Positions 4,101 through 43,394 are shown, counted from the first letter of the stretch. The stretch is DNA of 64,000 bases from an uncultured Clostridia bacterium (GCA_944332185.1 CALVJJ010000005.1:438-64437); one strand, 5' to 3'. Numbers and translations are program-made. Notes: a model not told the origin generated them from the letters alone.

Positions 4101-4462
4101 ATTTTTTTCTCCTTTTTTCATAAAAGGGACAGCATTCTCTATAATAAAATTTTCCACAATAAAACACAGTTGTCTTTATGCACAACTTATTTATTCAAGT
4201 ACTGTTGTTTACACAAAAAACTCCTTTACAACCACAAAAAATCTTGTGTCCACACACATGATGAGTTTTTTTGCCAACATATAAAATTGTAATTATTTAT
4301 CTACATAGGCGAATGCTATTCACCCAATATTTCCTATTTTAAGTATCTGCAGTATATCACAAATAGTCTGATTAGTCAACAAAAATTAAAAAGTATATCT
4401 TTATCTTATCTTTTAGTTGTTTCCCTTTTCTAGTATACTTATACAACTTGACTTTTTCGCAC

Positions 4463-4493
4463 AAAAAAAAGAGGCATTGGCTGCCTCTTTTTT
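4463..4493. terminator. Bidirectional rho-independent terminator at the holin end of the phage-derived module
   Basis: Stem GAGGCA (4471-4476) pairs with TGCCTC (4482-4487) around a 5-nt loop. An A8 run precedes it and a T6 run follows. Confidence 0.65.
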
Positions 4494-4503
4494 AAAAACA
4501 TCA

Positions 4504-4767
4504 TCATTGGTTGGTATTATGAGTATCATTGGTATCATCATCTGTGTCAGATTGATGGTCTTGATCACTTTCACTATCCATAGAATCATTGTCGCTAGGT
4601 TTTATGATAATGCCTAATATAACTAATATGCCACAGATTGCTGTCACAAGTTCACTAATAAACTGTTCATTGATGGCAAAACCGAATTGTTTTCCTATCA
4701 CTTGCAATAGCAATATTACTGCCCCTGTTAAGCTGATCCAAAACCCGTATTGTCTTAATTTACTCAT
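4504..4767 (-). CDS. Phage holin (phi LC3-like, two-TM type) with an acidic C-terminal tail
   Basis: 87 aa from ATG 4765-4767, with GGAG upstream. The sequence SKLRQYGFWISLTGAVILLLQVIG...LVTAICGILVILGIII gives two TM helices. The tail is D/S/T/N-rich. It is the last gene of the module. Confidence 0.6.
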   Translation of the reverse strand: MSKLRQYGFWISLTGAVILLLQVIGKQFGFAINEQFISELVTAICGILVILGIIIKPSDNDSMDSESDQDHQSDTDDDTNDTHNTNQ

Positions 4768-4993
4768 TTTCCTTTTCTCCTTGTACATGTGACTGAATGG
4801 TTGTTTTTATTTCCTGTATATCTTCTTTTATGTTTTCGACAATAGATAAAGATGCATTCAAAGATGCAATCGTTTCTTGATACTTGATTTCTCTACGTCT
4901 ACTATCTTTTAAAACATACACCAACAGCATTAAAAACAACACTGCCCATAGCCCATTGCTTATAGCCAAATTCAATATTTCTTCAAATACCAT
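4760..4993 (-). CDS. BhlA/UviB-family holin-like peptide
   Basis: 77 aa. One N-terminal TM (GLWAVLFLMLLVYVL) is followed by KDSRRRE and an amphipathic coiled tail, the architecture of BhlA/UviB peptides. A TAATG overlap links it to the upstream ORF. Confidence 0.55.
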   Translation of the reverse strand: MVFEEILNLAISNGLWAVLFLMLLVYVLKDSRRREIKYQETIASLNASLSIVENIKEDIQEIKTTIQSHVQGEKENE

Positions 4994-5637
4994 TAGTATA
5001 GATATTCCTTTTTCAAAATACTAAAATATGGTCCAAGTACAGATTCTAGCCTATTTTCTTTTTCTAAAACAGCACGAATTTGAGAAGGAGAAAAAGACTG
5101 AAAAATGGTTTTTAGACGTTCATATATTGTTTTTTCAAAATTATTTTCTTTTTCTTGCATACTTTTTTGTTGTTCTTCTTGCTGTGCTTGATGAATATGA
5201 TTGGCTTTCTCTTTTTCTTTTTTTAATTGCTCTTGAAGAACTGCAATTTTTTGCTCCACATTTTCCACGTTAAAAAGATTCAGTTCCTTGAGATCTGTTT
5301 CTTTTGCTGATTCCAATCCTTCTAACTCAAATTCCAACATCGTAATATTCTGTTGAACTGATTTTGCTTGTTGTTGCAAGTCAAGATTGCTATTTTGATG
5401 ATCTTTTAATGTATCTTGTGGCAATGATTCTGTGCTATTGTTCTCCACTGACTTATCTTGTTGCGATACTTCTAGATTAGAATTGCCAACATAATTTTGA
5501 TTGATGTTTTCTTGTTGCTCATAAGCTGTATTTTGTAATTTTTCTATTTCCTTCCCTACAAGATAGATGGCTTCTTGTTGGCTCGTTTGGTCCATCATAT
5601 TTTCTGTCCAATGTTGATCAAATTTGTATGTGTACAT
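4993..5637 (-). CDS. Q/E/N-rich coiled-coil protein of the phage-derived module (function unknown)
   Basis: The start is set at MYTYKFDQHW (ATG 5635-5637) because AGGAGG lies 6 nt upstream. The longer ORF-track start would overlap the upstream gene by 92 nt. The 214-aa product is low-complexity and heptad-like. Confidence 0.55.
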   Translation of the reverse strand: MYTYKFDQHWTENMMDQTSQQEAIYLVGKEIEKLQNTAYEQQENINQNYVGNSNLEVSQQDKSVENNSTESLPQDTLKDHQNSNLDLQQQAKSVQQNITMLEFELEGLESAKETDLKELNLFNVENVEQKIAVLQEQLKKEKEKANHIHQAQQEEQQKSMQEKENNFEKTIYERLKTIFQSFSPSQIRAVLEKENRLESVLGPYFSILKKEYLY

Positions 5638-5704
5638 ACCTATCCTCCTATCTTTTTGTAATTGTAACATGGCTCGCCTTTGTATCGTATTGCCGATCAT
5701 CATA

Positions 5705-6916
5705 TTATACCTTACTTTCGTATAGTTGATCTTCATAGACAATATAGGTTTTATTTTGCAAGTACATAATTTCTTGTGCATTAGGATAAGTGGCAAGACT
5801 CGTTAATTTTACTCTACCGTTGATGGTTGTCAACAAGTATTCTTGTATATATCCATGATATTTTGCTAATAAATGTATACCATCTTCTTTTTCCACCCCT
5901 GTCAGTTCTAATGGTGACTTAATATTCAAACAGAATGGATATAATATATCATCATCAAGAAAACGAGTAGACAACATAAAATAAAGAATCTTACCATCAA
6001 TGCTTTGTGCTAAAAATCCATTTTCACCAACTAACCCTTGCATACTTGTCACACCTTGTAATTTTTTAAAATTCGTAGAGATCAGTAATTGATCTAGTCT
6101 AGTACAAGTATAAGATGGCGCTAAAGTAAAATCTAGTTGTACTCCTGTCAAAATCCATTGATCCCCATCTTTATATAACACAATGATAGGAGACAATCCT
6201 GAAGAACTACTAAGCACACTACAGATACTAGGTTTTGCTAAAGGAATCTGTAAGATAGCATTTGTAAATAGATTTTGAATTATGATAGCTGTGTCTGTCT
6301 GATAGATGACACACATCATAGCAGTAGTGTCATTTATTTTTGCTACTGCAAAATCACAAACATTCTTAACTGCTTGTGCTGTCTTACCAAAGGTTATCAA
6401 CTTGGGATCTTCTTCCAAACTATATTGACTTAAATAATATTCATCATCAAGTAAAGATAATATGTATGCACCTTTTTGTGTATAACATATTTTTGTACTA
6501 GGTTGTTCAAAATCTAATATGATAGATTTTCCCCTTGATGAGCAATGTATCAACATAGTTTCTGTCTCTATATTATTATTTATTGTCAGTAACATTGTAG
6601 ATTTTGGTGTTAGATATACACTTGTTGATAATTTCAAACAATTATTATATTGTGTAAAAGAAGCTATAAAAACGTTGTCAATATATAAAAAACACTGTCT
6701 TTCATTAGCATTTTGAAACACCAGAGACAAACAAAGATCTATTTTTTCTACCTCTGTCACATGAAATAATTGCAATGGAATTTGGTGTGTACTAGGAATA
6801 GTCAGTCTTCTAAATTGTTCTTTCCATTCTCGTTCTAAACTTGAAAATTGATCTACCATTGAGGATTGCAAAACACCTAATTGCTCATAAGCTTCTTTAC
6901 CATAACTTTTATTCAT
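5705..6916 (-). CDS. Hypothetical phage-module protein (403 aa; candidate tail/baseplate component)
   Basis: Long ORF with an ATGA overlap to the upstream gene. I recognise no family motif. The position downstream of the head genes suggests a structural role. Confidence 0.6.
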   Translation of the reverse strand: MNKSYGKEAYEQLGVLQSSMVDQFSSLEREWKEQFRRLTIPSTHQIPLQLFHVTEVEKIDLCLSLVFQNANERQCFLYIDNVFIASFTQYNNCLKLSTSVYLTPKSTMLLTINNNIETETMLIHCSSRGKSIILDFEQPSTKICYTQKGAYILSLLDDEYYLSQYSLEEDPKLITFGKTAQAVKNVCDFAVAKINDTTAMMCVIYQTDTAIIIQNLFTNAILQIPLAKPSICSVLSSSSGLSPIIVLYKDGDQWILTGVQLDFTLAPSYTCTRLDQLLISTNFKKLQGVTSMQGLVGENGFLAQSIDGKILYFMLSTRFLDDDILYPFCLNIKSPLELTGVEKEDGIHLLAKYHGYIQEYLLTTINGRVKLTSLATYPNAQEIMYLQNKTYIVYEDQLYESKV

Positions 6917-8397
6917 TGATAATATCCTACTAAAATAGTTGGTGCCGAAATGTATGCTTGTCTATCTTGACACTCAAAGGTAATCCCAAATATTTTTCCT
7001 TTCATATGTATTTTAATCGTTTGAGGTTTGTCTGAACCTTTGACAAAAAATTTTTTTGTTTTCTTGTCTGTACTGATCACCATTTGACAATCATAACGTG
7101 AAGTTAGATAGATCTCTTGTATCATTTTTTCTTTATCTGGAAGATCTAGATCTATCATAGGCGATACCCATTTTTTAGGTAATGGTTGATCAAAAAATTG
7201 ACCATCTTCTTCAAGTACTGTACAGACTTGCTTGCCATTATGTTTACAGACAACTAGTAGTTTTGAGAAGGTATCATCATGGCAGGCACATATACTCATG
7301 ATACCAACTCCTCTAAGTAATGCAATTTTCCCCGTTTCTAAATCATATTGTAATAATGTATTAAAATTACCTGTTTCACAAGTCATTGGATCAGGATAGT
7401 TCATATTGCAAGCTAGATAATAACAGCCGTTATGAAACACACCTTCAGCTTTTGTATTGTCTTGATTTTGTAATGCTTGCATGAGTGGAAAATCTATTTT
7501 TTCATAATTTAGTCCATCAAATCGATAGAGTCCATCTTCCATAAGCAAAATAAAACAATCCCCTGCTACCACTACACTATCTGGATAAATTCTGGAATTG
7601 GATTGATAGAGTTGTTCTGCTTCAAAACCTTGATTGGTTTTTGCTATCCTACTAATTCCATAATCCCTAAACACATAAACATAATCTTTAAAACTCATGA
7701 CTTTATTCAGTCTACCTTTTTCATCGATCATGGTAAGGAATCCTGCTTCTAGCATAGACACATTCCAATTCGTTGGATCTAGGTCATCGCTATACCATAC
7801 TTGACTTTTGTCTCCACTTAAACAAGCAAACAGTTTATCAAACTGTAGACACATACTACTAATTTTAGGTGCATCTTCTACAAAAATAGGAGCATTATTC
7901 GCATAATTAGCGTCCCAAATTATCATACCATCTTGTTTTGTACACAAGATAAAAACATCTTGACCGTTAAGTCTATAATTAACAGCTACCGGACAAGAAG
8001 ACAATGAAAATCTGGTTTCTTTGCTAGGTGTTGTATCGATGGCTTGCAAAAACACCGAATACAAGTGATGGTCTACACAATAAGCCACCACCATTGACCA
8101 ATCATTCCCCATATAATCATAATACCGATATACCCATACTTTTTCTATATCATAAGGAAATTCATCAATGATTCTTGTCAAATGTTCGGGATCATCTACA
8201 TGAGGCAGATATAAGGTTTTCAATCCCATACCTGTTGTTAATGCCCCATTATGAGCATCAAAATTATACATAGAAGTTGCCACATTCAATGGCAAGATAT
8301 TGGGATCTTTATCTGTATTAGCATTCTGTAAAAAATCTTCTATTTTCACTTTTTTATATACAATATTTTTTTTAGATCTTTGATATTGACTATACAT
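6913..8397 (-). CDS. Hypothetical phage-module protein (494 aa; beta-rich, candidate tail tube/nozzle-like component)
   Basis: The ATG at 8395-8397 overlaps the upstream stop (TAATG). Repetitive beta-strand-like segments are present (VWYSDDLDPTNWN, YVYVFRDYGISRI, LYRFDGLNYEKI). No catalytic motif was recognised. Confidence 0.6.
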   Translation of the reverse strand: MYSQYQRSKKNIVYKKVKIEDFLQNANTDKDPNILPLNVATSMYNFDAHNGALTTGMGLKTLYLPHVDDPEHLTRIIDEFPYDIEKVWVYRYYDYMGNDWSMVVAYCVDHHLYSVFLQAIDTTPSKETRFSLSSCPVAVNYRLNGQDVFILCTKQDGMIIWDANYANNAPIFVEDAPKISSMCLQFDKLFACLSGDKSQVWYSDDLDPTNWNVSMLEAGFLTMIDEKGRLNKVMSFKDYVYVFRDYGISRIAKTNQGFEAEQLYQSNSRIYPDSVVVAGDCFILLMEDGLYRFDGLNYEKIDFPLMQALQNQDNTKAEGVFHNGCYYLACNMNYPDPMTCETGNFNTLLQYDLETGKIALLRGVGIMSICACHDDTFSKLLVVCKHNGKQVCTVLEEDGQFFDQPLPKKWVSPMIDLDLPDKEKMIQEIYLTSRYDCQMVISTDKKTKKFFVKGSDKPQTIKIHMKGKIFGITFECQDRQAYISAPTILVGYYQ

Positions 8398-8966
8398 TAT
8401 ACCCACCTTCTAGGTTTGATATAAATTTCTGATTTTTTACGAGCAATATTCGCAATAGCTTTTTGGAATTCTTCATCATATCGATTCATTTCTTCTTCAA
8501 AACCTTTGATAAAATAGTAATCACTTACGACACTTAAGGCTACAATTTGTTCATGAATATCTTCAGCATAATAGGTTATATCTTCTCCAAAGGCAACTTC
8601 TTTTGGGTAATAAGAATACTTAATCACCACCTGTCCTACATTTGGACACAAGATTTTGTCTTCTTGGATACTATACTCTACACTTGCTCCTGCAAGTGTT
8701 TTTACAGATAAAATGTTATGAATGATATGTTCTGTATGCTCACGCATTGCTATTGGTTCACTGGTGGATACTGTCATAGAAGAAACTAAAGGTTTGTAAT
8801 GCGTTACCAATTTTATCATAGTATAATTGACACATTTTAATAGCAGTGTTAATTCTTTTTTTCTTTCTTCATCGCTATCTTCTTGCCCCAGTAAGATGGG
8901 ACTACCCATCAAATCTTCTTTGTCCAACATGACACAAGCATATTCGATAATTTTATTTACTTTCAT
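8397..8966 (-). CDS. Hypothetical phage-module protein (189 aa; candidate head-tail connector/adaptor)
   Basis: The start is set at MKVNKIIEY (ATG 8964-8966), with AAGGAG 4 nt upstream. The function is inferred only from its position after the capsid gene. Confidence 0.5.
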   Translation of the reverse strand: MKVNKIIEYACVMLDKEDLMGSPILLGQEDSDEERKKELTLLLKCVNYTMIKLVTHYKPLVSSMTVSTSEPIAMREHTEHIIHNILSVKTLAGASVEYSIQEDKILCPNVGQVVIKYSYYPKEVAFGEDITYYAEDIHEQIVALSVVSDYYFIKGFEEEMNRYDEEFQKAIANIARKKSEIYIKPRRWV

Positions 8967-8974
8967 ATTTCTCC

Positions 8975-9352
8975 TTAGTACCATTGATCTTGATATGCAC
9001 CATCTAAACAATCATGCATCATAAGATATTGATACATTTTTTGTAATTGATATTTGGTTTGATCTAGCAGTGTTTGTTCTTGTTTTTCTTTTCTTTTTTG
9101 ATTGTCTTTTTCTAATTGATAAAATATTTTTTTACTATGATAAGGATTGGTTCTTGTTTGGTATACTTTTTGGATTACCCTTTGGTCTAATACAGCAAAA
9201 GAAAATTGATAACTATGTTTACCATACCCATAATGCAATTCATATTGTCTGTTTTTTGTCCATATAACCGAGTATTGTGGATCTATTTGGTACAATTCTT
9301 GCAAAATATCAAAAACGTCACTTGTTACTCTATATTGTTTTTGTCGTATCAT
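8975..9352 (-). CDS. Hypothetical phage-module protein (125 aa)
   Basis: An ORF between the capsid gene and the connector-like gene, on the same strand as the operon. No family was recognised. Confidence 0.5.
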   Translation of the reverse strand: MIRQKQYRVTSDVFDILQELYQIDPQYSVIWTKNRQYELHYGYGKHSYQFSFAVLDQRVIQKVYQTRTNPYHSKKIFYQLEKDNQKRKEKQEQTLLDQTKYQLQKMYQYLMMHDCLDGAYQDQWY

Positions 9353-9410
9353 AAAAAACTAACAATATTGGAAGATCTACTCTTCCAATATTGTCCCCAT
9401 TGTTTATTTT

Positions 9411-10586
9411 TTAAGCTTCAGTGATTCCTGTTAGTTTTGCTTGTCCAGCAGGTTTGTCACAAATCATTTCAGCATATTTGACTAATGTTGCTGTATAGGT
9501 TGGATAGTTGTCACTCATTTTTAGAATTCTACCATTAGCAGTTTCTAACCATTGCCAATCGCAGAGTTGATGCATACAGAATTCCTTGGTGTTGAGTAAG
9601 TACATATCTTGCTCACCTGCGAATCTATCAGCAATAACTGGAATACCATTAAAACTAATAGCTTTATGACCACCAGCAAGTTCCAACACATCAACATTGC
9701 GTCTATATGTAGCGAGATATGCTTGATACAATCTTCTTACTTTGCTAGAACAAGTAATAAAGTCAATCGTGCTACCATGATATTCTTCTAGATAATCAAC
9801 TGCTTCTTGAATTTTGTCATCACTAATTGCCCCAACACTTGTTTTTACATAAGGATTAAGCCATGGATTTTCTTCTTTGGATACGCCATAAATTGTTGGT
9901 GTATCAGTATTGAATAATGCTTCTAAACCAGTAATTTCGTTTTGATAAGAACCTTGTACCACCATAATATGATTGGTCGTTAGTTCTTTTAAAATTGGTG
10001 TAGAAATTGTAAGTGTATTAGTATTTCTATCAATAGCAAGAATATTGAGTCTTTGCAAAGTTTTAGTACCATTGGTCGTATCAATCACATCTACCAACAT
10101 TCCTTCCATCAAATTCTTACAACTGTCTACAACAATATGGGTATTATCTGATGACGAAAAGGAAGATACAGTACATAGTTTTCCGCTACCATCACCATAA
10201 AGCATACGGCTTAAATTGAATGCACTAGATTTGATTAAGTTTTCCATTTCATTATTGAGTAAATTCACAAATGCTCCAGCACTATTAGAACTTGCGCGCA
10301 ATGCTTTGTCTGTAATTTTTAAAGATCCATACAAGTTTTTCAGTGTAGAAACAAATTGTACAGCACCCATTGCTTTTGCTGTTGGAAGTGTTCCATCTTC
10401 AATACCAGCTCCAATACCTCCACTGATACCGAATGGAGCCATTTTTCTTACTTCTTTACCCCAGACATCTTTGGTAGATTGTTCGATTTTGCCAAGTAAT
10501 GGATTGGCATTGATATTTAGTTGGTTAGATACTACTCCCAAATATACTGTTTTTAGAGCGTTTTCCGCTGTTTCAAAATTGATCAT
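9411..10586 (-). CDS. Phage major capsid protein (HK97-fold type)
   Basis: 391 aa, immediately after a scaffold gene. The C-terminal block IDFITCSSKVRRLYQAYL...LELAGGHKAISFNGIPVIADRF...MYLLNTKEF...WQWLE...TATLVKYAEMICDKPAGQAKLTGI resembles capsid proteins of Firmicutes phages. Confidence 0.7.
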   Translation of the reverse strand: MINFETAENALKTVYLGVVSNQLNINANPLLGKIEQSTKDVWGKEVRKMAPFGISGGIGAGIEDGTLPTAKAMGAVQFVSTLKNLYGSLKITDKALRASSNSAGAFVNLLNNEMENLIKSSAFNLSRMLYGDGSGKLCTVSSFSSSDNTHIVVDSCKNLMEGMLVDVIDTTNGTKTLQRLNILAIDRNTNTLTISTPILKELTTNHIMVVQGSYQNEITGLEALFNTDTPTIYGVSKEENPWLNPYVKTSVGAISDDKIQEAVDYLEEYHGSTIDFITCSSKVRRLYQAYLATYRRNVDVLELAGGHKAISFNGIPVIADRFAGEQDMYLLNTKEFCMHQLCDWQWLETANGRILKMSDNYPTYTATLVKYAEMICDKPAGQAKLTGITEA

Positions 10587-10597
10587 GTTCCCCTCTT

Positions 10598-11239
10598 TTA
10601 CTTAAACATACGTGCCACAACATCTCTTGCTTCTTTTAAAGTAGTTGGTTTTGGTTGTTGTTCCACTTGGTACCCACTTAACTTATTACTTTTTATGAGA
10701 GGTGGGACATCATGTTGTTGGACACGTTCTAAGTATTCTTTTATGATTTTATCTTTTATTTCTTGATTATCCCGAATATATTTTTCATAAAATTCCGGAT
10801 CTTGTCCCACAAGGCTTTTATCTACAAAATTGGTTTTCATAATTTGATTCCAAGCAAGTTCTAGGGAGTTTGGCTGACTTGCCAATACTTTATCCTTCAA
10901 AAGCAAGGATCCAATTTGTGCAGAATATCGTTTTGCTTCTTGGTTATTTTCCATAAAAGCAGAAAGTTTTTCTTTCCAATGCTCTTTTTGATACTCAGGT
11001 ACATTATCCAATGTATTATCTTTTTTCTCTAGTTCACTTAATCTTTGGCACTTTTTCGTGAATTCACTTTGTAGATTTTTATATGCCTCAGCTAGTGACT
11101 TTGCATCTTTAAACTTTCCTAATGTAGAGTCCATAGAACTTCTATCTTCCTCTACCACTTCTTCCAATTTTGTATTCTCTACAACGGGGCTGGAAATAGA
11201 TTGTTCTATTGATTGTTCTACTATATTTTTTTCTTCCAT
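10598..11239 (-). CDS. Phage scaffolding protein
   Basis: 213 aa, acidic and helical. The motif GKFKDAKSLAEAYKNLQSEFTKK is typical of scaffold proteins. It sits between the portal and capsid genes, with AAGGAG 7 nt upstream. Confidence 0.65.
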   Translation of the reverse strand: MEEKNIVEQSIEQSISSPVVENTKLEEVVEEDRSSMDSTLGKFKDAKSLAEAYKNLQSEFTKKCQRLSELEKKDNTLDNVPEYQKEHWKEKLSAFMENNQEAKRYSAQIGSLLLKDKVLASQPNSLELAWNQIMKTNFVDKSLVGQDPEFYEKYIRDNQEIKDKIIKEYLERVQQHDVPPLIKSNKLSGYQVEQQPKPTTLKEARDVVARMFK

Positions 11240-11259
11240 TGATTACTCCTTTTGTATAT

Positions 11260-13143
11260 TTAATTTTTTACTTCTTGTTCTGCAAGTTTTTGTTCTTTTA
11301 GTTTTGTTTTGTGCTCTGCAATATGTTTTAATAGTTTTTCTTCCCATTCAGGGTGTTTTTGACATCGTTTTTCAAACTCATCACCAAGTAAGAAAACTGT
11401 ATGTTTTGTGATATGAATTTCATGATCATCGACTTCTTTGACTTCCAAATCTTTTCCTTCTAACAATTCGTAGTTTTCTTTGTCTGCTCTTTTACTATGT
11501 ACCATGGTCACATCTTGCGACATATCCCAAACACCAAACCCTAGTTGATCCAAAATTTTATAACGAACAGTATTACTTAATTTGCCATTTTCATCATGTA
11601 AAAGTCCGGCATTATAAATTTCAAAAATCATACTCCTTTTTTGTGCTACTGTTTCATTCATTTCATTTTGTGTTTCAAAAACAACATCATCACTACCAAT
11701 ATCCGAAGAATTCCAATAAAACATTTCAATAGCACCATTTTCTTCTAAAAGTCTAGTAGAATGCATGCAATCGGCAAATTGTTTGTATAGTCTTAGTACC
11801 TGCTTTGCAATTTCTTTGGTAGCATTACGAATTTCTTCTGCAGAATTGATGAGTTTTGACTCATCTTGTTCAATGAGTAATTGCAACGTCACCCCACTAA
11901 TATTGGCGTATTGAGAGGCTTGATTACTAAGGTCGCTAACGCCACTAACGGTAATCATTTCATTCAACAATTTTTCTTCTTCTTCCTTAAAATCAGCAGG
12001 CACACTATCTCCTGTCAACATTTTTGGAGGAGTAGCACCTTGTCTATATACCAAGACTTTCCCCGGACTCATACCTTCTTCTTCTAGATTTTCTGTATCT
12101 ACCGATCCATCTTCTACGGTAAGTACCCCCATGGTTAATCGGTTGATGTATTCATGTTTTCTGTTCTTTATGGTATTGTATGCCCTTTGCAGTGGAATAC
12201 ATCTTTCAATCATGGACACTCCCCAGAAGCAACCAGGAATCGCATAGCTACATTGTTTGATAAATGGATACCCGCGTAATTGATTTTCTTGATTGATATA
12301 AGGTAAAGGTCCTTGATAGACTAAAGTCTTACCAGCAACGATTGTGAGTCTGCCATCTGGGAATTGACTGGTAGGTGCTTCATACTTTTCAATCACTAAT
12401 GCATGATCATTTTGTGCAATAGAAGTAGTTTGGATAGAACAAGCATTGTACCCCAGTCCACCAATATTCGCAATCGTATCCATACCCAGAATAGACACAT
12501 TGTCTTTTTCTACTTCCACATGATACAATCTTTTAATCTCATCTATATGATAAGCTTTTGCATGAATAATACTCTTACAGTCTTGAATATTGGCATAATG
12601 ATTATTGTCTGGAAAGATCTCAAAAGGACTAATGACACTTACTTCTACTTCTCCACTTCGTACTTCTTTTCCCTTTTGATCTACAGCTATCAAATCTCCC
12701 AATTCTGGATTCCATGTTACTTTATAAAAAGCAGTCCCAGTGAGTTCACTCCATCGAGTGCCTTCTGCTAAAATTGCACTCAAATTTTTAGCATTACAGA
12801 ATGCTTTTAGAATGTTTTTACTTACTTTTGCTTGGTATATATCTTTATCGTTGTCACTAAAAGGATTGACAGTCATACTTGGTCTAACTCGACTCAGTTT
12901 TGTAAGTCTCAAATCCACTAATGGTGCAATATGGTTAAATACTTCTCTTTCCTGCCAAAAGTATTGTCTTTGAAAATCTTCTATATTCCCATTATGATCT
13001 AAAGAACAATATTGATTACCCAAATAATAATTGATATTAAGCATCCATGTTTTTTCAAAATTTCTACGTTGTTTTTGTCTATCTTGATACTCTTTGATGA
13101 TAGCACGAACAATATTTTCTTTTTCCACCTGTTGTTTTTTCAT
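11260..13143 (-). CDS. Phage portal protein
   Basis: 627 aa. The position between terminase and scaffold fits a portal. The N-terminal region ...RRNFEKTWMLNINYYLGNQY... and the acidic C-terminal helical tail are portal-like. Confidence 0.7.
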   Translation of the reverse strand: MKKQQVEKENIVRAIIKEYQDRQKQRRNFEKTWMLNINYYLGNQYCSLDHNGNIEDFQRQYFWQEREVFNHIAPLVDLRLTKLSRVRPSMTVNPFSDNDKDIYQAKVSKNILKAFCNAKNLSAILAEGTRWSELTGTAFYKVTWNPELGDLIAVDQKGKEVRSGEVEVSVISPFEIFPDNNHYANIQDCKSIIHAKAYHIDEIKRLYHVEVEKDNVSILGMDTIANIGGLGYNACSIQTTSIAQNDHALVIEKYEAPTSQFPDGRLTIVAGKTLVYQGPLPYINQENQLRGYPFIKQCSYAIPGCFWGVSMIERCIPLQRAYNTIKNRKHEYINRLTMGVLTVEDGSVDTENLEEEGMSPGKVLVYRQGATPPKMLTGDSVPADFKEEEEKLLNEMITVSGVSDLSNQASQYANISGVTLQLLIEQDESKLINSAEEIRNATKEIAKQVLRLYKQFADCMHSTRLLEENGAIEMFYWNSSDIGSDDVVFETQNEMNETVAQKRSMIFEIYNAGLLHDENGKLSNTVRYKILDQLGFGVWDMSQDVTMVHSKRADKENYELLEGKDLEVKEVDDHEIHITKHTVFLLGDEFEKRCQKHPEWEEKLLKHIAEHKTKLKEQKLAEQEVKN

Positions 13144-13145
13144 TT

Positions 13146-13349
13146 TTATTTTTCCTTTTTAAACATATTTTTTGGACTTTTTGGTACTATAACGCTCCCT
13201 ATTGATTTATATAGTTCGCTAAGACATTCTTTGCAAAAATACATATTCGTAGCAATAATGCCTTTTTTCTTTTGTATGACATAATCTGCAAGATTTTTAC
13301 AACCATGTGTATCACATTTTATATCAATTTTGACTGGTTTTATTTCCAT
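13146..13349 (-). CDS. Small zinc-ribbon-like protein (67 aa)
   Basis: Two Cys pairs, CDTHGC...CKEC. GGAGG lies 6 nt upstream of the ATG. The gene overlaps the upstream ORF by 26 nt. Confidence 0.45.
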   Translation of the reverse strand: MEIKPVKIDIKCDTHGCKNLADYVIQKKKGIIATNMYFCKECLSELYKSIGSVIVPKSPKNMFKKEK

Positions 13350-13620
13350 GATATTCCTCCAACTTTTCTAATAATTTTATTTTTTCTTCCATCAGTTCTT
13401 CCTTGCTCATGGACTGATACGTTTTCGTAATTGGATCTTTGATATACTCCATCATCCATTTGATTGCTGTTAGATCTGGAGGTATATGTTTGACGGTCAC
13501 TTTTCTTTTGTTTAACCGTATCTCCTGATCATCAGTTGCATATTCTTCCACAACTTCTTCAGTATCATACCCTAGAGCTTTTTTCATAATGGCATCTTTT
13601 AATTGGTCGATTTTTTTCAC
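13324..13620 (-). CDS. Small phage-module protein (98 aa; possible small-terminase-like or DNA-binding factor)
   Basis: GTG start with GGAGG upstream. The segment KKALGYDTEEVVEEY...KRKVTVKHIPPDLTAIKWMMEY resembles a motif seen in small terminase subunits of Firmicutes phages. However, the gene lies downstream, not upstream, of TerL. Confidence 0.35.
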   Translation of the reverse strand: MKKIDQLKDAIMKKALGYDTEEVVEEYATDDQEIRLNKRKVTVKHIPPDLTAIKWMMEYIKDPITKTYQSMSKEELMEEKIKLLEKLEEYHGNKTSQN

Positions 13621-13627
13621 ATTTTTG

Positions 13628-15073
13628 CTACCTCCACGGTTGCCTTCTTAGTTGTCTATACAGTCTTTCTTTGTCTTTTTGTATGATTGACTTTTGAGGT
13701 TTGATAGGTTTAGGTTCTGGCTTTGTCATGATATAATATCGTAATTCGTCCATAGCATGATCATCTTTTTTGATAGGGATATCCTTATCTGACCAAAAGT
13801 AAGATTTGATCTCCCGAATCATATTGGTACAAGTGCGAAAAATAAACAATTTTGAATGTCCATTGGCATCTTTGATATATTGTTTTACACGACTAATTCC
13901 ACTAAACATATCTTTATTTACATGGGTATTCACATTCAGTCCCAACTCATAAAACAACTCGCTAACACTTTTTGTGCTAGCGAGTGTTTTTTGATTGGAG
14001 GCACTGTCAATTAAAGCATCATACTTTCCATTAAAACCTTTTGGCCACCCCAATTTTACACAAATATTCTTGATACATTCTGCATGATGCACAATATCTT
14101 TTTGTGCTTCATAATGTTCTGCAATGACATAGATATTTCCATCATAATCCATAGCATACCAATGACAACTTAAAGGATTGTGTAAACCCGGATCAATACT
14201 TATCATATCATACCATTCTTTAGGAACAGTAAAAGGATCTATCACATTGACTTGTTCATCAAAATTAGCATAAACTAATCCCCCATAACTTGTAAAATTC
14301 CCATACTTTCTTGTCTCCAATTCTTCTTTACTCATGGTACTAGATAGATATTGAATTTCTTGTTCATTCAAAAACGGATTATCTTCCCAACTCATATGAA
14401 TATACCAATTTTCTGGATCGTTTTGTTCGTTTAGATAAATATCTGAATACACCCATGTCAAACCTTTTAGTGGAGTCATCGTTCCAAAAATTTCGCCACA
14501 TTTATCTATAACACGCATTTTACATTCTTGATAAATATCTTGTGGTGGTTCTTCATCAAACCACACAAAATCCAAACTTGTCCCTTGGAATTTTTCTCTG
14601 CCTTGGTCACAACTTTTAAAGCCAATCGTACTGATTTGTCCACTGACATTTTTAATTTTAATTAAATCAATGACACCATTTTCTGGACTATCTTTTCTTC
14701 CCTGTGCCATTACAATGTCTTCAATCCATTCGGGATTTAGGTAATGTAAAATCTTTTTTTGTGCAACATCACGCTGCACCTGTGTAGATAGACTTACTAC
14801 CCACCCACTGACAGACTCTTTATTGTTTTTATATGGGTGAATACCTCTTGCTAGCCATATACACTCGACAGCTCCACATTCTGTTTTGCCTGTTCTATTG
14901 CCTCCAAATACCCATCGGTTTCTTTTTGTAGACTTATGAAAAGCTATTTGTTTTTTGTGTATCTTTTCTCCTTTGTTATATTGATCCAATGGACAAACAT
15001 AAGACTTAAGTTGCAATATTTGATCAATAAGTTGTAGTCTTCTTTCTATTTCTTGTTTTGATTGTTTTGACAT
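13628..15073 (-). CDS. terL: Phage terminase large subunit
   Basis: 481 aa. Walker A is GGNRTGKTE and Walker B is LDFVWFDEE. The C-terminal nuclease region is typical of TerL (...DDHAMDELRY). Confidence 0.9.
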   Translation of the reverse strand: MSKQSKQEIERRLQLIDQILQLKSYVCPLDQYNKGEKIHKKQIAFHKSTKRNRWVFGGNRTGKTECGAVECIWLARGIHPYKNNKESVSGWVVSLSTQVQRDVAQKKILHYLNPEWIEDIVMAQGRKDSPENGVIDLIKIKNVSGQISTIGFKSCDQGREKFQGTSLDFVWFDEEPPQDIYQECKMRVIDKCGEIFGTMTPLKGLTWVYSDIYLNEQNDPENWYIHMSWEDNPFLNEQEIQYLSSTMSKEELETRKYGNFTSYGGLVYANFDEQVNVIDPFTVPKEWYDMISIDPGLHNPLSCHWYAMDYDGNIYVIAEHYEAQKDIVHHAECIKNICVKLGWPKGFNGKYDALIDSASNQKTLASTKSVSELFYELGLNVNTHVNKDMFSGISRVKQYIKDANGHSKLFIFRTCTNMIREIKSYFWSDKDIPIKKDDHAMDELRYYIMTKPEPKPIKPQKSIIQKDKERLYRQLRRQPWR

Positions 15074-15136
15074 AATAGGACATATTCCTTATGAATTCGT
15101 GATTTCTTTTCTTCTATTTTGTGATACAGTAAAAAT

Positions 15137-15826
15137 ATGAAATGGATTCTTATATTCTTACTACTATTCCAGCCCTTATTCCCTAAACCTAACACATGGG
15201 TAGAGGCAACTGATCAATATGCACGTCTTACACATAACGCACCTTTATATAAAACCAGCTCTGCAGATCAAAACAATTATGGTATATGGTGCGAAATGGA
15301 AGCTACATATTTTGTACAGATTATTTTAGATTTTAATGAGTCGTTATACAAAGTTAGATATGCCAATATGACAGGATATGTAGAAAAAGATGCCGTTACA
15401 CTTGTCTATTCTACACCACAAAATCCATATCCTAGTAACATCATCATCACCATTGCATCATCTTGCTATTTGCGTTCTACCCCAACCATTCAAGCATCGA
15501 ATACACTTACCACCTTATTCAAAGGCACAACTGTCACTTTTATTGGCAAAGTAGATAGCGAAACCATTATGGATTTTAATGGTCCAACATGGTATCTCGT
15601 CTCTTATCAAGATTTGATTGGTTACGTATATTGTGGCTATACAGAAAAAGTAGGTACGATCATGCCCAATATCGAACAAGTCACTGTGGCAAAACCCAAT
15701 ACTTCCGAAGTTGGTATCACACCGTTTAGCAATATCCAAAGTATGTGGTTGGTCTTACTGGCTTTAATCCCTACTATTGCAATTTTATATTTTATTTATA
15801 AACCAAATAAAAAGACATCTAAATAG
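15137..15826 (+). CDS. Secreted, C-terminally membrane-anchored protein with two SH3b-like domains
   Basis: 229 aa. It has a signal peptide MKWILIFLLLFQPLF and two SH3b-like units (…YKVRYANMTGYVEKDAV; …WYLVSYQDLIGYVYCGY). A C-terminal TM (MWLVLLALIPTIAILYFIY) is followed by KPNKKTSK. Its 3' end overlaps the convergent regulator gene by 8 nt. Confidence 0.7.
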   Translation: MKWILIFLLLFQPLFPKPNTWVEATDQYARLTHNAPLYKTSSADQNNYGIWCEMEATYFVQIILDFNESLYKVRYANMTGYVEKDAVTLVYSTPQNPYPSNIIITIASSCYLRSTPTIQASNTLTTLFKGTTVTFIGKVDSETIMDFNGPTWYLVSYQDLIGYVYCGYTEKVGTIMPNIEQVTVAKPNTSEVGITPFSNIQSMWLVLLALIPTIAILYFIYKPNKKTSK

Positions 15827-16346
15827 TTTTTAGTTCTTGGCGAAAATTTTTGAGTAAATATAATTTTTGCAATGCATCAAATTCTGTATCTTTTTCTATA
15901 TTTGCCTGATACTGCCCCATAAGCCATTTTTCATCTTTATATTCTTTTAGCCACCACGACAATGTATAAGAAGATTTTTCCATAATGCTCAATAGTTCAA
16001 CTAGAGCATTATTTTTTCGTCTAAAAAAGGTCCTTGTACTAAGATGTAGTAGTTCTGTCACTTCTGCACTTTTTAATCCATCAAAATAATATAAAACCAG
16101 TATTTTTTGATCTATTGGATTTTTTAATTTTACAATAGCATTTTCTATAATGACTTTGATATTGATAATTTTTCTTTTTCTTTCGTTCAGTTCCATCAAT
16201 GTTTCTACACTATCCATGGTTGTTCGATAGGTAGAAGAAAAAGATCTTTGCACTTCTTCTTGAGCCATTTCATCAATCGTATTGGCAATGAGTTCCAAAT
16301 GTCTATAAATTTCTAATAACGTTTTGATCCAAGCTTTATCTTTCAT
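15819..16346 (-). CDS. ArpU/sigma-70-region-4-like transcription regulator (candidate late-gene activator)
   Basis: 175 aa. The segment IDQKILVLYYFDGLKSAEVTELLHLSTRTFFRRKNNALVELL matches the region-4/ArpU-type HTH pattern (LxxxERxxLxLxY...S..EIA..L..S..T). A C-terminal extension of about 50 aa follows. Confidence 0.5.
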   Translation of the reverse strand: MKDKAWIKTLLEIYRHLELIANTIDEMAQEEVQRSFSSTYRTTMDSVETLMELNERKRKIINIKVIIENAIVKLKNPIDQKILVLYYFDGLKSAEVTELLHLSTRTFFRRKNNALVELLSIMEKSSYTLSWWLKEYKDEKWLMGQYQANIEKDTEFDALQKLYLLKNFRQELKTI

Positions 16347-16701
16347 ATTTCCCCCATGTTTCCATTTTATGTAGGCATAAAAAGCATAAAAATAGCATTT
16401 TTGATTTGCTATTTTTGTCGATTTTTATCCATCACGCTAATAGTATAAATGACAAAAAGTAGCAATGTCAAAGTTCTATGCCAAATTTTGTAAAATATTT
16501 TTCAAAAATCAAATATTATTTTACAAAAATATAAAATTTTGCTTTTTATCAAACATTTGTTCGATTATAGCACCCTATTCTTGCCAACAGTCTGTCAACA
16601 ATAAGAATATTTTTATATTTTTTTGCATTTTTATGTTTTTGTTTTATTTTCTGTAGAATAAAAATGGTAATGGTGTTCTTATTTTTATTTTTATATTTAC
16701 T

Positions 16702-16770: not shown

Positions 16771-19296
16771 ATGAGAAAATATATATTATTTTTGCTTTTA
16801 GCATTGGTGATGGTATTGCCATTTACTATGAGTTCTCCAGTTATATACGCCCAACAGCAAGAATCTTCACAAGAAGCCATTCTATATTTAGACAACTACC
16901 CTAATAGTCACTATTATCATATTGGAGAAGTGATGAATTTTGCAAAACATGGCACGACGGTATATTACACCAATGAAAGTATGACAGTAGATGCGTATGA
17001 TTTGACCACGAATACGTTACAATCTTTACCAATCAGTGCAGTCCAGTTTATTAGACCCTATCACAATGGAATACTATATATATCGGAAGGATTTTTATAT
17101 CAATATGATGGAACAACTTCTAAAAAGTTAGCTACAGCCGATCAGTTTGATTACTATGAAAGCGACACAAACAATATGTTATGTTATACTGTTCAAGACC
17201 AACTCTATCTTGCTTCCTTGGATACGACCAATTACAATCAATTACAGTCTCTATCTTCTGTCAATCTTACAGAAACGTATGGTATTTCTATATCAACCAT
17301 AAAATCTATTACGGCTACGGAAAAAGGTTGTATTGTCCTGACTGAAACTGCTGGACCTACGATCGAACTGTATCATATCTTACCTAATGGCAATTTTCAT
17401 ACTACCATTTCCAATACCTTAATGGATTGCTCTATGGTAAAATATGCAAAAGTAAATAACCAAGGTGTACTAGCTATCCTATATCGCAATCAAATTGCAT
17501 TGATTACCATTACAGATGAATTGGAATGGAATTTGAGTCCTATCAATCTTGATTCGACCAATCAAAGTATCTATACCCCAACCTATATAGATTTTATAGA
17601 CAATCAATTATTGGTCAGTGATACTACCAAGAAAAATATCAAAATTTTTGAATTTGATCATTTTGATGCTATACAAGATATGACAATGACTACCTTGCTA
17701 GGCAGTAATGGATCTAACATTGATCAATATGATCGTGTGACAGATATCTATTGTAAAACAAATGATGATATTTTAGTCAACGATACAGGCAATCATCGTA
17801 TCAAACGTATTCAAAATGGAAGCACGTATGCAAGCGATATTTTTGAATACGATAGCGACCTTACCATTCAACGCATAAAAGTGAATGCACACAATCAAAC
17901 AGTTATTCTTTCTTATTCTACAAGTCAACAGACTTCTTATATCCAATTCTATCAAGATAGAGATCTTGCTTCTCCTATCCAAACAATTACTTTATCTAGC
18001 TTGGTATACGACTTTTGGATCGATGATGAAAATAAAGTATATTATTGTAAAAATGATGGGATCTATCTAGATGATACCAAAATAATTTCTTATGCCTTAC
18101 AGAATCCTACCTTGTATTACCTTCCCGACACAGACACATTCTTATGTATTGATGGCAGTATGGTACTAGATATAGATCTTATACAAGCAACTATTGTAGA
18201 TTCATGGGATTTTGAATTGGATTATATAGATAAAACCATGGATTATCATGGCAACTTGTATCTTTTACAAGATACTACCCTTACCAAATATCAACTACAA
18301 AATCAATCTCTTATACAACAAGATCAAGTTGTTTTACAAAGAAAATATGAAAAAATGGCTCTAGATCAGGAAAGTGGAAAGTTTTATTTGTTTGATACAG
18401 TCAATTCTTGTATCTATACTTATGAGAATACAGCATTTTGTGATGGTATGCAATCTTACCAAGATATCTCCAAGGAAGTGGTTAGATCTTACGATCAGTT
18501 AGCAAGCTTATCTACATTCACCACTTCTAATGTGTATATCTCCCCTTACCCAAATGCCATTGGTCAGCTTACAGAATTATCTGCTACTTTACCAAATAAA
18601 GAATATAAAATGGCAGTCGTTACATTAGAAACGGTAGGAAAATATGCACATATTGTCTATTTTGATGAAGACTCTATGTTACAAGATGGATATATTGCAA
18701 GTTATTATTTGCAATCTAAAAATATACAAACTTCTCCAAAATCCTATTATGTCATTAGTAAAACTGCTAATGTCTATTACTTACCAACACAAGTTGCGAC
18801 CACTAATACAATATTAGAAAGCAACACCCAAGTACAAGTCATATCCAAGAATGTCACAGATATAGTAGGCTCTCCTGTGGAATTTTTAGCTATAGAACTA
18901 AATGGAACGGTTGCTTATGTATTACAAAATGATCTACTTCCTAGTAGTATGCAAGCCCCTACAACGAATACCGTGCAAAATGCAACCATTATCACAAAAG
19001 ATGACTATGTTACTGTCTATACTTCCCCTGATAAAACAAGTGAAGTACTTACCACTCTCCTAAATGGCACTAGAGTGTATCTAGTAGACTATCAAGAGGA
19101 TAGTGAATTCACAAAAATAAAATATTTGAATGCCAATCATGAAGAAGTAGAAGGCTATGTGCTTACCACAGTCATACAACCTGATAAAATGAGTAATATC
19201 ATTCTCATTTGTATTGTATTAAGTATCGTTGCCATCGTCATTTTAGTTGTTGTGATATATAATATTGTCAAACTAAAACAAAAATATATGAAATAA
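16771..19296 (+). CDS. Large secreted protein: beta-propeller/NHL-like repeats + three SH3b-like domains + C-terminal TM anchor
   Basis: 841 aa. It has a signal peptide and NHL-like motifs (ILVNDTGNHRIKRIQNG; LLVSDTTKKNIKIFEF). SH3b-like units occupy the last 250 aa. A TM (IILICIVLSIVAIVILVVVIY) is followed by a basic tail. Confidence 0.75.
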   Translation: MRKYILFLLLALVMVLPFTMSSPVIYAQQQESSQEAILYLDNYPNSHYYHIGEVMNFAKHGTTVYYTNESMTVDAYDLTTNTLQSLPISAVQFIRPYHNGILYISEGFLYQYDGTTSKKLATADQFDYYESDTNNMLCYTVQDQLYLASLDTTNYNQLQSLSSVNLTETYGISISTIKSITATEKGCIVLTETAGPTIELYHILPNGNFHTTISNTLMDCSMVKYAKVNNQGVLAILYRNQIALITITDELEWNLSPINLDSTNQSIYTPTYIDFIDNQLLVSDTTKKNIKIFEFDHFDAIQDMTMTTLLGSNGSNIDQYDRVTDIYCKTNDDILVNDTGNHRIKRIQNGSTYASDIFEYDSDLTIQRIKVNAHNQTVILSYSTSQQTSYIQFYQDRDLASPIQTITLSSLVYDFWIDDENKVYYCKNDGIYLDDTKIISYALQNPTLYYLPDTDTFLCIDGSMVLDIDLIQATIVDSWDFELDYIDKTMDYHGNLYLLQDTTLTKYQLQNQSLIQQDQVVLQRKYEKMALDQESGKFYLFDTVNSCIYTYENTAFCDGMQSYQDISKEVVRSYDQLASLSTFTTSNVYISPYPNAIGQLTELSATLPNKEYKMAVVTLETVGKYAHIVYFDEDSMLQDGYIASYYLQSKNIQTSPKSYYVISKTANVYYLPTQVATTNTILESNTQVQVISKNVTDIVGSPVEFLAIELNGTVAYVLQNDLLPSSMQAPTTNTVQNATIITKDDYVTVYTSPDKTSEVLTTLLNGTRVYLVDYQEDSEFTKIKYLNANHEEVEGYVLTTVIQPDKMSNIILICIVLSIVAIVILVVVIYNIVKLKQKYMK

Positions 19297-43103: not shown

Positions 43104-43394
43104 ACCTCAATAGTTGCCATTTTAAAAAAATGTATACTTCTTTTATTTTGTTGTATACTAAACAAAATACCATTATTTACCAATTTGCAATGAAGTAGAG
43201 GAATCAATATGTATCAAGAAAAAACGTGAAACTACTGTGTTTTGTTTGCCAAATCTATGAAAATACTATATAATTATTTTGTTATGATATGTAAAAGAAA
43301 TTTGTTTGATCATTATGATATTTTGATACCCATATATCTGCTATCATGATCCAATCAAATAAAGAACAATGAATAAAAAGAAAAGGTGGCATTT

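Follow-up and report, generated by a model that had tools for sequence, protein, structure and literature searches.

What keeps an intact set of phage packaging, head, tail and lysis genes in place between the housekeeping genes of a bacterial chromosome, when nothing around it would let a phage replicate, integrate or establish lysogeny? This question is raised by a cluster at positions 4504-16346, on the minus strand, of a 64-kb stretch of DNA (one strand) from an uncultured lineage of Clostridia with a low G+C content (GC), whose named relatives are Christensenellales. We call the whole 64-kb stretch the window and give all positions of the element on its numbering. Read along the minus strand, the cluster consists of a regulator, the large terminase TerL, two small open reading frames (ORFs), a P22-type portal, a scaffold candidate, the capsid protein, five further ORFs, a BhlA-type peptide and a holin. 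The block from TerL to the holin covers 10.6 kb, or 14.8 kb if the regulator and two genes for SH3-domain proteins are counted, and housekeeping genes lie on both sides. Every ORF of the cluster is intact and the junctions are tightly coupled. An original prediction, made from the sequence, had read the locus as a candidate domesticated particle system resembling a gene transfer agent (GTA), or else as an unusually clean prophage remnant; its ORF coordinates, sizes and gene list agree with our reanalysis, in which families were assigned by Pfam, PHROG and NCBIfam profile scans of the window proteins.

We consider it probable that the cluster is a vertically inherited, domesticated particle system derived from a podovirus, in other words a GTA-like viriform. 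Two general traits of GTAs and viriforms are present: a chromosomal head, tail and packaging set without replication, integration or lysogeny genes, together with a conserved locus, host-like rates and purifying selection. As the original prediction had stated, an integrase, a repressor, a replication gene or a murein hydrolase (endolysin) was not recognised anywhere in the 64-kb window, either by profile scans or by eye, and a search for att-like direct repeats flanking the block gave short AT-rich chance matches only. Lacking replication, integration and lysogeny functions, the cluster cannot spread as a virus. An intact temperate podovirus prophage was also considered and set aside: such prophages measure 35-45 kb, compared to 10.6 or 14.8 kb here, and a lysogeny switch, integrase, replication genes and endolysin were all missing from the window.

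A conserved chromosomal locus under purifying selection

Homologous loci were read around capsid genes and are labelled L003, L006 and so on. The order pda-SSB-(large surface protein)-regulator-(SH3 protein)-TerL...holin-rnj-methyltransferase-U32 recurs in six other diverged assemblies with 27-37% GC, namely L003, L006, L010, L011 and L012, hereafter the five deeper loci, and the congener L018. In the case of L010, the pda-SSB side lies beyond what could be checked and the other side is syntenic. Close and distant relatives alike hold the stripped module, and not a full prophage, at the site between rnj and pda-SSB, which supports the domesticated, GTA-like reading. Strain-specific occurrence with frameshifted copies in other genomes, which the original prediction had named as a possible objection, was not what we observed: the module is present in seven diverged genomes, the window included, and is intact in every genome examined at the rnj site. 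Linkage to rnj was further scored on the 28 metagenomic loci having enough downstream sequence. The gene lies downstream in 13 of these, which are spread over the capsid tree and include a clade of 47% GC, and this spread suggests that the cluster originally lay beside rnj and reached its other positions later.

Divergence was then compared between the element and its neighbours. Relative to the five deeper loci, TerL is 66-69%, the capsid protein 55-62% and the portal 50-57% identical, and the corresponding values for the flanks are 56-70% for rnj, 63-72% for the U32 peptidase, 55-62% for SSB and 45-62% for the methyltransferase. When the window is compared with the congener L018, none of the 20 genes is disrupted, and synonymous sites are saturated (proportion of synonymous differences, pS, 0.58-0.80). 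Nonsynonymous divergence (dN) in this pair is 0.144 for TerL, 0.159 for the portal and 0.163 for the capsid protein, and 0.136, 0.132 and 0.143 for the host genes rnj, U32 and SSB, respectively. The ratio of nonsynonymous to synonymous divergence (dN/dS) of the core genes is below ~0.2. Maintenance by selection, which had been argued from the intact and tightly coupled ORFs, is therefore borne out by core genes whose dN equals that of rnj, U32 peptidase and SSB at saturated synonymous sites. Distance matrices of element and host genes are correlated (r 0.73, Mantel p 0.003). Codon use is host-like as well, with a GC content at third codon positions (GC3) of 0.240 in the module and 0.242 in host genes and codon frequencies that correlate with r 0.96. 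Residence at one housekeeping locus, divergence at the pace of RNase J and the codon usage of the host argue against a circulating phage or satellite, which should carry an integrase or a replication gene.

The same data bear on the possibility that the cluster is a decaying prophage remnant, functionless and merely clean-looking. The missing endolysin would fit such a remnant, as would some related loci without TerL and regulator. However, all ORFs are intact in seven syntenic genomes despite saturated synonymous sites, core dN/dS lies below the value given above, and the gene junctions have stayed tight. A neutral remnant could hardly have kept 17-20 reading frames whole over a divergence that saturates synonymous sites; on intactness and dN/dS we rejected this explanation, which is close to refuted and now scarcely credible.

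A side observation concerns the gap between holin and rnj. Five syntenic genomes encode a polytopic membrane protein of 312-316 aa at this position (L003 16587-17537; L006 16349-17287; L010 15943-16887; L011 15730-16680; L012 16418-17368), which matches no Pfam family; the window (4158-4503) and L018 lack it. The gene may belong to the element, with an accessory or immunity function, or it could just be one of the host's own.

Packaging, head, tail and lysis genes

All genes of this section lie on the minus strand. TerL (481 aa, 13628-15073) matches Terminase_6N (7.6e-14) and phrog_2 (2.8e-30). It is the best-conserved gene of the element: besides the above-mentioned 66-69% identity in the syntenic loci, it shows 53-69% in most of the related ones, whose GC content ranges from 25 to 67%. 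On the viral contigs L019-L081, which cover this same GC range, TerL was, where detected, 53-69% identical to that of the window in nearly all cases and the capsid protein drops to ~35% identity, making TerL the slowest-evolving gene of the family. Downstream of TerL, a protein of 87 aa (13324-13587), or of 98 aa if translation starts at a GTG farther upstream, is a possible small terminase. It shows a weak match to phrog_309 (TerS; 7.9e-6), which covers only the C-terminal part (profile positions 197-242 of 319), it contains no DNA-binding domain, and it is 41-56% identical in the syntenic loci. Between this gene and the portal gene lies an ORF for a 67-aa protein (13146-13349) in which a zinc-ribbon-like CX4C...CX2C motif was read directly from the sequence (40-46% identity in syntenic loci).

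The portal (627 aa, 11260-13143) is of the P22/SU10 type (P22_portal 3.2e-18; phrog_156 1.1e-34). It is followed by a 213-aa protein (10598-11239) without a family match in the Pfam, PHROG and NCBIfam scans and with 34-42% identity in the syntenic loci; its position between portal and capsid, as in Microbacterium phage Shocker, makes it the scaffolding candidate. The major capsid protein (391 aa, 9411-10586) was assigned by NCBIfam NF033394, capsid_maj_Podo (4.1e-77), and phrog_14242 (7.9e-51). Directly 3' of the capsid gene, a consensus scan detected a terminator-like hairpin at 9361-9395, a 15-pair stem followed by a T run. As a pattern match, this hairpin may act as an attenuator within the cluster and adjust how much tail protein is made relative to head protein.

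The original prediction had left the next five ORFs (125, 189, 494, 403 and 214 aa) without any recognisable family. This holds for three of them, whereas the 494-aa ORF is a nozzle by predicted structure and the 214-aa protein is weakly DUF7934-like. The 125-aa protein (8975-9352) has no match in Pfam or PHROG, is 26-34% identical in four of the five deeper loci and 43% in L018, and is absent from clusters of the L015/L016 type; from its position, a role in head completion or decoration is conceivable. For the 189-aa protein (8397-8966), sequence and profile searches, PDB included, gave no match, and a single-sequence AlphaFold model was unusable (mean predicted local distance difference test score, pLDDT, 31). 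In the loci examined, a protein of 186-215 aa is always encoded immediately upstream of the nozzle gene, where podoviruses put the head-to-tail adaptor.

The 494-aa protein (6913-8397) also lacked any sequence-level match to a family or solved structure in Pfam, PHROG and PDB. An AlphaFold2 model on a 52-sequence alignment reached a pLDDT of 88.8 and a predicted template modelling score (pTM) of 0.88, and showed a beta-propeller. Using this model, a Foldseek search against the PDB returned Pa223 (9nwi_Y) as the best match (E 8.8e-22, template modelling score 0.73), followed by VP1, GP4, PhiM1, SU10, P22 and T7 gp12, all of them podovirus portal-tail structures. By its predicted structure, the ORF is thus a podovirus tail nozzle. 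When the PDB was searched by sequence and by profile, neither the nozzle nor the adaptor candidate nor the capsid protein had a significant match, and profiles of the nozzle and adaptor candidates did not match those of the tail genes of Shocker. Families of sheath, tube, tape measure or baseplate proteins were not matched by any window protein in the Pfam, PHROG and NCBIfam scans, in line with the prediction that tube, sheath and tape measure are missing. A P22-type portal combined with the predicted nozzle implies that any tail is short, as had been proposed.

Two less conserved proteins complete the putative tail. The 403-aa protein (5705-6916) has no family match, and its positional counterparts in the deeper syntenic loci (185-451 aa) lack detectable similarity to each other; compared to L018, identity is 35% and dN/dS ~0.48. 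Such hypervariability is expected of a receptor-binding component. The 214-aa protein (4993-5637) is a coiled-coil protein rich in Q, E and K, whose place in orthologous clusters is taken by DUF7934 proteins. The DUF7934 scores at this position are 1e-46 in L006 and 3.5e-36 in L003, and the window protein resembles these two weakly (tblastn E 0.001). The cluster ends with a BhlA-family holin-like peptide (77 aa, 4760-4993; PF10960 1.4e-17), which is 53-62% identical in the syntenic loci, and a holin (94 aa, 4504-4788; Phage_holin_1 3.6e-5, phrog_297 2.7e-13).

The tail and lysis genes are also where the main rival explanation has to be weighed, in which the domesticated particle is a killer particle or lysis device after the model of PBSX, with host DNA packaged incidentally and no productive delivery; competitors would be killed or damaged, or part of the population would just be lysed. 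PBSX of Bacillus packages host DNA and is a myovirus-like element of ~28 kb with sheath, tube, tape measure and endolysin. Like PBSX, the window cluster is a chromosomal, phage-derived element of a Gram-positive that has kept structural and lysis genes and a dedicated sigma-like activator. In contrast, its TerL matches the PBSX TerL family below the cut-off (39 bits vs 105), and its tail is of the short, nozzle type. Support for a killing function comes from the BhlA family, which PHROGs ties to bacteriocin production or immunity (phrog_2429, 8e-14), and from the accompanying holin. Moreover, all our comparative results are equally compatible with any selected function, and the authors who described FpGTA, the GTA of Faecalibacterium prausnitzii, leave the same alternative open for their element (Borodovich et al., 2026; PMC12946183). 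On the other hand, PBSX-type killing needs a contractile tail, and conservation here is highest in TerL, portal and the TerS-like gene, which indicates selection on DNA packaging itself. Overall, we regard a killer or lysis device as unlikely. A PBSX-like defective prophage was tried as a class of its own and rejected, as the scans detected no contractile-tail family and no endolysin and a nozzle was found instead.

Regulator, SH3 proteins and proposed working

The only regulatory gene of the element encodes a 175-aa protein (15819-16346, minus strand) of the sigma-70 region 4/DUF1492/ArpU-RinA type, as known from phage late-gene activators (DUF1492 4e-6; Sigma70_r4_2 2.6e-5; phrog_36 4.5e-13; phrog_248 1e-9; weak NCBIfam RinA). 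Its identity across the six syntenic loci is 34-38%. Upstream of the gene, a consensus scan detected a sigma-70-type promoter-like site (TTGACA-18-TATACT, 16442-16471, minus strand) with 11/12 matches, a pattern match of a kind that is no more frequent in this region than in shuffled sequence. An alignment of nine loci upstream of TerL revealed no convincing shared promoter motif.

The original prediction placed this regulator just upstream of the block. It is indeed present there, but an opposite-strand gene for a 229-aa membrane protein (15137-15826, plus strand) lies between regulator and TerL, with its start codon 63 nucleotides from that of TerL. The protein combines a signal peptide, an SH3_3 domain (Pfam 1.6e-9) and a C-terminal transmembrane segment. 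An opposite-strand gene for 226-265 aa occupies this position in all syntenic loci, and counterparts occur at other chromosomal sites too, in L015 and L016 by position and in L116 and L151 by tblastn. At such relocated sites the SH3-protein gene, coding for an opposite-strand membrane protein of 230-250 aa, stands next to TerL, usually with a regulator-sized gene beyond. As it accompanies the element in many genomes, the 229-aa gene is better counted as an associated part than as host flank.

A second such gene, divergent from the regulator, separates it from SSB. It codes for an 841-aa surface protein (16771-19296, plus strand) with signal peptide, NHL/beta-propeller-like region, SH3_3 domain and C-terminal membrane anchor (Pfam SH3_3 1.8e-6, weak NHL). 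The claim that the block directly abuts core genes is consequently correct at rnj, but not at SSB. L003, L006, L010, L011, L012 and L018 carry an opposite-strand gene for 600-910 aa at this position (21-44% identity), and so does L015, though its cluster sits at a different chromosomal locus. Counterparts of the 841-aa gene were detected in fewer genomes than those of the 229-aa gene. The two proteins have the same architecture of signal peptide, SH3_3 and C-terminal membrane anchor, and share a similar stretch (15211-15236 and 17721-17746), and their genes may be paralogues.

From these parts the following working can be proposed. The ArpU/RinA-type activator with its sigma region 4, expressed from its own sigma-70-like promoter, would turn on a single operon from TerL to the holin. 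Procapsids of capsid protein and scaffold would form on the P22-type portal, and TerL would load DNA, perhaps aided by the 87-aa TerS-like protein despite its lack of a recognisable DNA-binding domain. The short tail would be added next, composed of the 189-aa adaptor candidate, the 494-aa nozzle, the hypervariable 403-aa distal protein and the DUF7934-like coiled-coil protein. Finally, BhlA peptide and holin would permeabilise the membrane, and a murein hydrolase encoded elsewhere would finish the release. The cargo of such particles would most likely be fragments of host DNA. That the element is active, packages DNA and delivers it to recipients is what analogy would lead one to expect.

Relatives at other sites and known systems

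Homologues of the capsid protein are numerous. At least 5978 were found in genomes and metagenomes at E<=1e-5, of which the best 120 are all at least 57% identical, and contigs of 100 kb to 1 Mb carry many of the homologues. Among representatives clustered at 50% identity, 286 clusters reached E<=1e-30, and a scan of genome contigs with a single capsid protein as query returned two loci. Members of the same family were also found in a Christensenellales metagenome-assembled genome, and none of the high-GC members whose source names were read came from Faecalibacterium. In addition, a capsid of this family (P0422) is annotated in Brevibacillus migulae of the class Bacilli, by which the family reaches outside Clostridia, possibly on a genuine prophage.

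Several of our observations weigh against a vertically inherited, domesticated particle system. First, clusters occur at other chromosomal sites in L014, L015, L016, L116 and L151; in L015 (Candidatus Borkfalkia) the cluster adjoins a phosphoglucomutase gene and in L016 yqfD-phoH-ybeY-era-recO. Maliibacterium massiliense (LR026983.1), a cultured species of the same broad group, has two copies of the module (L013, 2215459-2236634; L014, 978370-999548) with capsids 46% identical. One copy is compact and located among housekeeping genes beside cdaA and ybbR, and in the other the tail genes are larger (807 and 704 aa); this latter copy possibly forms part of a fuller prophage. Taken together, the other sites and the two Maliibacterium copies indicate that the family is not purely immobile. 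Second, element and host do not always agree: host genes of the window and L006 are 72% identical and the element 60%, and for L010 and L011 the values are 60% and 66%, so that some exchange between lineages is possible. Third, TerL, the regulator and the SH3 gene are all missing from the locus in two sub-clades (L109, L122, L128, L145, L155 and L168). Their clusters consist of the TerS-like gene and those for portal, scaffold, capsid, adaptor and nozzle (for example L122 6733-13743, where the portal-to-nozzle genes abut an ABC transporter), and could represent either a split multi-locus arrangement or decay. Fourth, an endolysin was not found in any cluster examined, which leaves the lysis functions of the window incomplete on their own. 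The adaptor is a candidate by position and size, and the 403-aa protein a candidate receptor-binding fibre, spike or needle by its position. The term GTA-like, lastly, is used on genomic grounds, the element being known here from its genes.

Some of these findings would also suit a mobile satellite, or a mini-phage, along the lines of a capsid-forming phage-inducible chromosomal island (PICI), which would depend on a helper phage or on unrecognised genes for replication, excision or tail fibres and would target the rnj region. Related clusters at several chromosomal sites, twice in Maliibacterium, speak for mobility, as do the incomplete congruence of element and host trees and the fast turnover of the proteins at the 403-aa and DUF7934 positions, as under host-range selection. 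However, the window contains no recognisable integrase, primase or rep gene and no att repeats, and the element encodes its own nozzle, unlike the tail-less capsid-forming PICIs. Codon usage and GC3 are the same as those of the host, the locus persists across genomes in which RNase J is 56-70% identical, and the divergence of the core genes follows that of housekeeping genes. A satellite thus appears very unlikely to us, and a capsid-forming PICI in particular was largely rejected on the missing integrase, rep gene and att repeats, the presence of the nozzle and a locus fixed across diverged genomes.

Among 50,697 sequenced phage records, the closest capsids (24-27% identity) belong to 45-kb lytic podoviruses of Actinobacteria. 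For capsid and portal alike, no sequenced phages come closer than Microbacterium phage Shocker and the Arthrobacter phages Jasmine, Brad and Adat, whose genes follow the order of the window: TerL, then two small ORFs, the portal, a gene in the scaffold position and the capsid. They differ in that identity is only 21-27%, in that their tail genes have no detectable similarity to those of the window, and in being complete lytic phages with DNA polymerase, primase/helicase and endolysins.

A GTA of another phylum offers a more distant comparison. RcGTA of the Alphaproteobacteria is siphovirus-like, possesses a tape measure and a tail tube, and is controlled by the host regulators CtrA and GafA. 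No sequence relationship to it was detectable, and the window element differs in being podovirus-like with a phage-type late activator. RcGTA is similarly a head, tail and packaging cluster without selfish modules, inherited vertically at a conserved locus with host-gene rates and host-like composition, in which TerL and capsid are best conserved and TerS is reduced (PMC5721377, PMC9836097).

The closest known parallel is FpGTA, published in 2026 (preprint 2024), and the statement that no GTA of this kind has been described in Gram-positives is no longer valid (Borodovich et al., Nat Commun 2026; PMC12946183). FpGTA is encoded by a chromosomal operon of ~10.5 kb and ten ORFs, is nearly ubiquitous in its host genus, lacks replication and integration genes, and forms 40-nm particles with ~8.5-9 kb of host DNA (PMC12946183). 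Both elements belong to gut Clostridia, form a chromosomal cluster of about 10.5 kb, contain a candidate TerS without DNA-binding domain and have a podovirus-like short tail. Rebuilt from accession numbers that follow one another and from the functions assigned in the publication, the FpGTA order is TerL (RCH50852), portal (RCH50851), a protein in the scaffold position (RCH50850), capsid (RCH50849), two ORFs, nozzle (RCH50846), one ORF and a TolA-like coiled-coil protein (RCH50844) (PMC12946183). Compared by order and description, not by sequence, the window series of capsid, 125-aa, 189-aa, 494-aa nozzle, 403-aa and 214-aa coiled-coil proteins matches it position for position. By this position the 214-aa protein would be the equivalent of the TolA-like protein, which has the third-highest spectral count of the F. 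prausnitzii proteins detected when particles were purified (PMC12946183).

The two elements also differ in several respects. The FpGTA capsid is annotated as 'N4-gp56 family', whereas the window capsid and 101 representatives of its family match NF033394 and none of these 102 the N4 family; a profile comparison of the window capsid family with N4 gp56 was likewise negative (probability 0.1). The apparent difference in capsid family points, indirectly, away from orthology and may mean that the window element arose by a domestication of its own. So does the location of the FpGTA genes for holin, endolysin, fibre and receptor binding, which reside in a second operon ~125 kb away, whereas both holin-type genes of the window are part of the main cluster, and the FpGTA paper mentions neither a linked sigma-region-4 regulator nor opposite-strand SH3 membrane proteins (PMC12946183). 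Furthermore, particles, proteomics and packaged DNA have been seen for FpGTA, while genes are all we have for the window. We thus place the cluster as a podovirus-like, GTA-type element of gut Clostridia that is possibly an independent domestication. The concept of a podovirus-like GTA has been published; in the literature searched, we found no description of this family, the rnj locus, the linked regulator and SH3 proteins or the wide distribution.

In long-read sequencing of gut virus-like particles, many Clostridia are seen to pack short fragments of random origin from their own chromosome, and the responsible genes have been pinned down in Faecalibacterium only. GTA-like packaging of 4-10 kb fragments is also reported for Christensenellaceae and other uncultured Clostridia, with no loci assigned (PMC12946183); those organisms were not linked to the window element. 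The cluster is a concrete candidate for a second and much more widespread family of such particle makers. As a tentative and rather doubtful extension, it could be an ancient podovirus-derived GTA that a whole family or order of uncultured Clostridia from the gut and from anaerobic digesters (Christensenellales and relatives) has in common, domesticated independently of FpGTA, located beside rnj since before these lineages split, equipped with its own late activator and with SH3 surface proteins that are possibly a recipient-side receptor or immunity, and responsible for the packaging of 4-10 kb pieces of host DNA that has been seen for Christensenellaceae and comparable taxa. If the cluster is confirmed as a second family of particle makers, short-tailed phages would have been domesticated repeatedly in gut anaerobes, adding a sizeable extra route of gene flow to the microbiome. 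The presence of the module in the cultured M. massiliense makes the idea directly testable.

The surroundings of the cluster are those of an ordinary chromosome region. Past the holin, profile scans identified rnj, an O-methyltransferase and a U32 peptidase, and on the other flank SSB; pda beside the window SSB was recognised via Polysacc_deac_1 orthologues that hold this position in related loci. Farther out lie genes that we take, from their earlier labels, to be parC and parE. An Rfam scan detected two tRNAs and no riboswitch or other regulatory RNA. The remaining ~45 kb of the window, classified by eye, consist of housekeeping genes such as murG, ddl, a murF-like gene, tsaB/E, obg, nth, uvrA/B and hflX. 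Two secreted proteins of 1210 and 1189 aa with C-terminal membrane anchors are encoded at 43386-47018 (plus strand) and 56587-60156 (minus strand); one of them has a long charged coiled-coil tail, and both are probably cell-surface proteins unrelated to the cluster.

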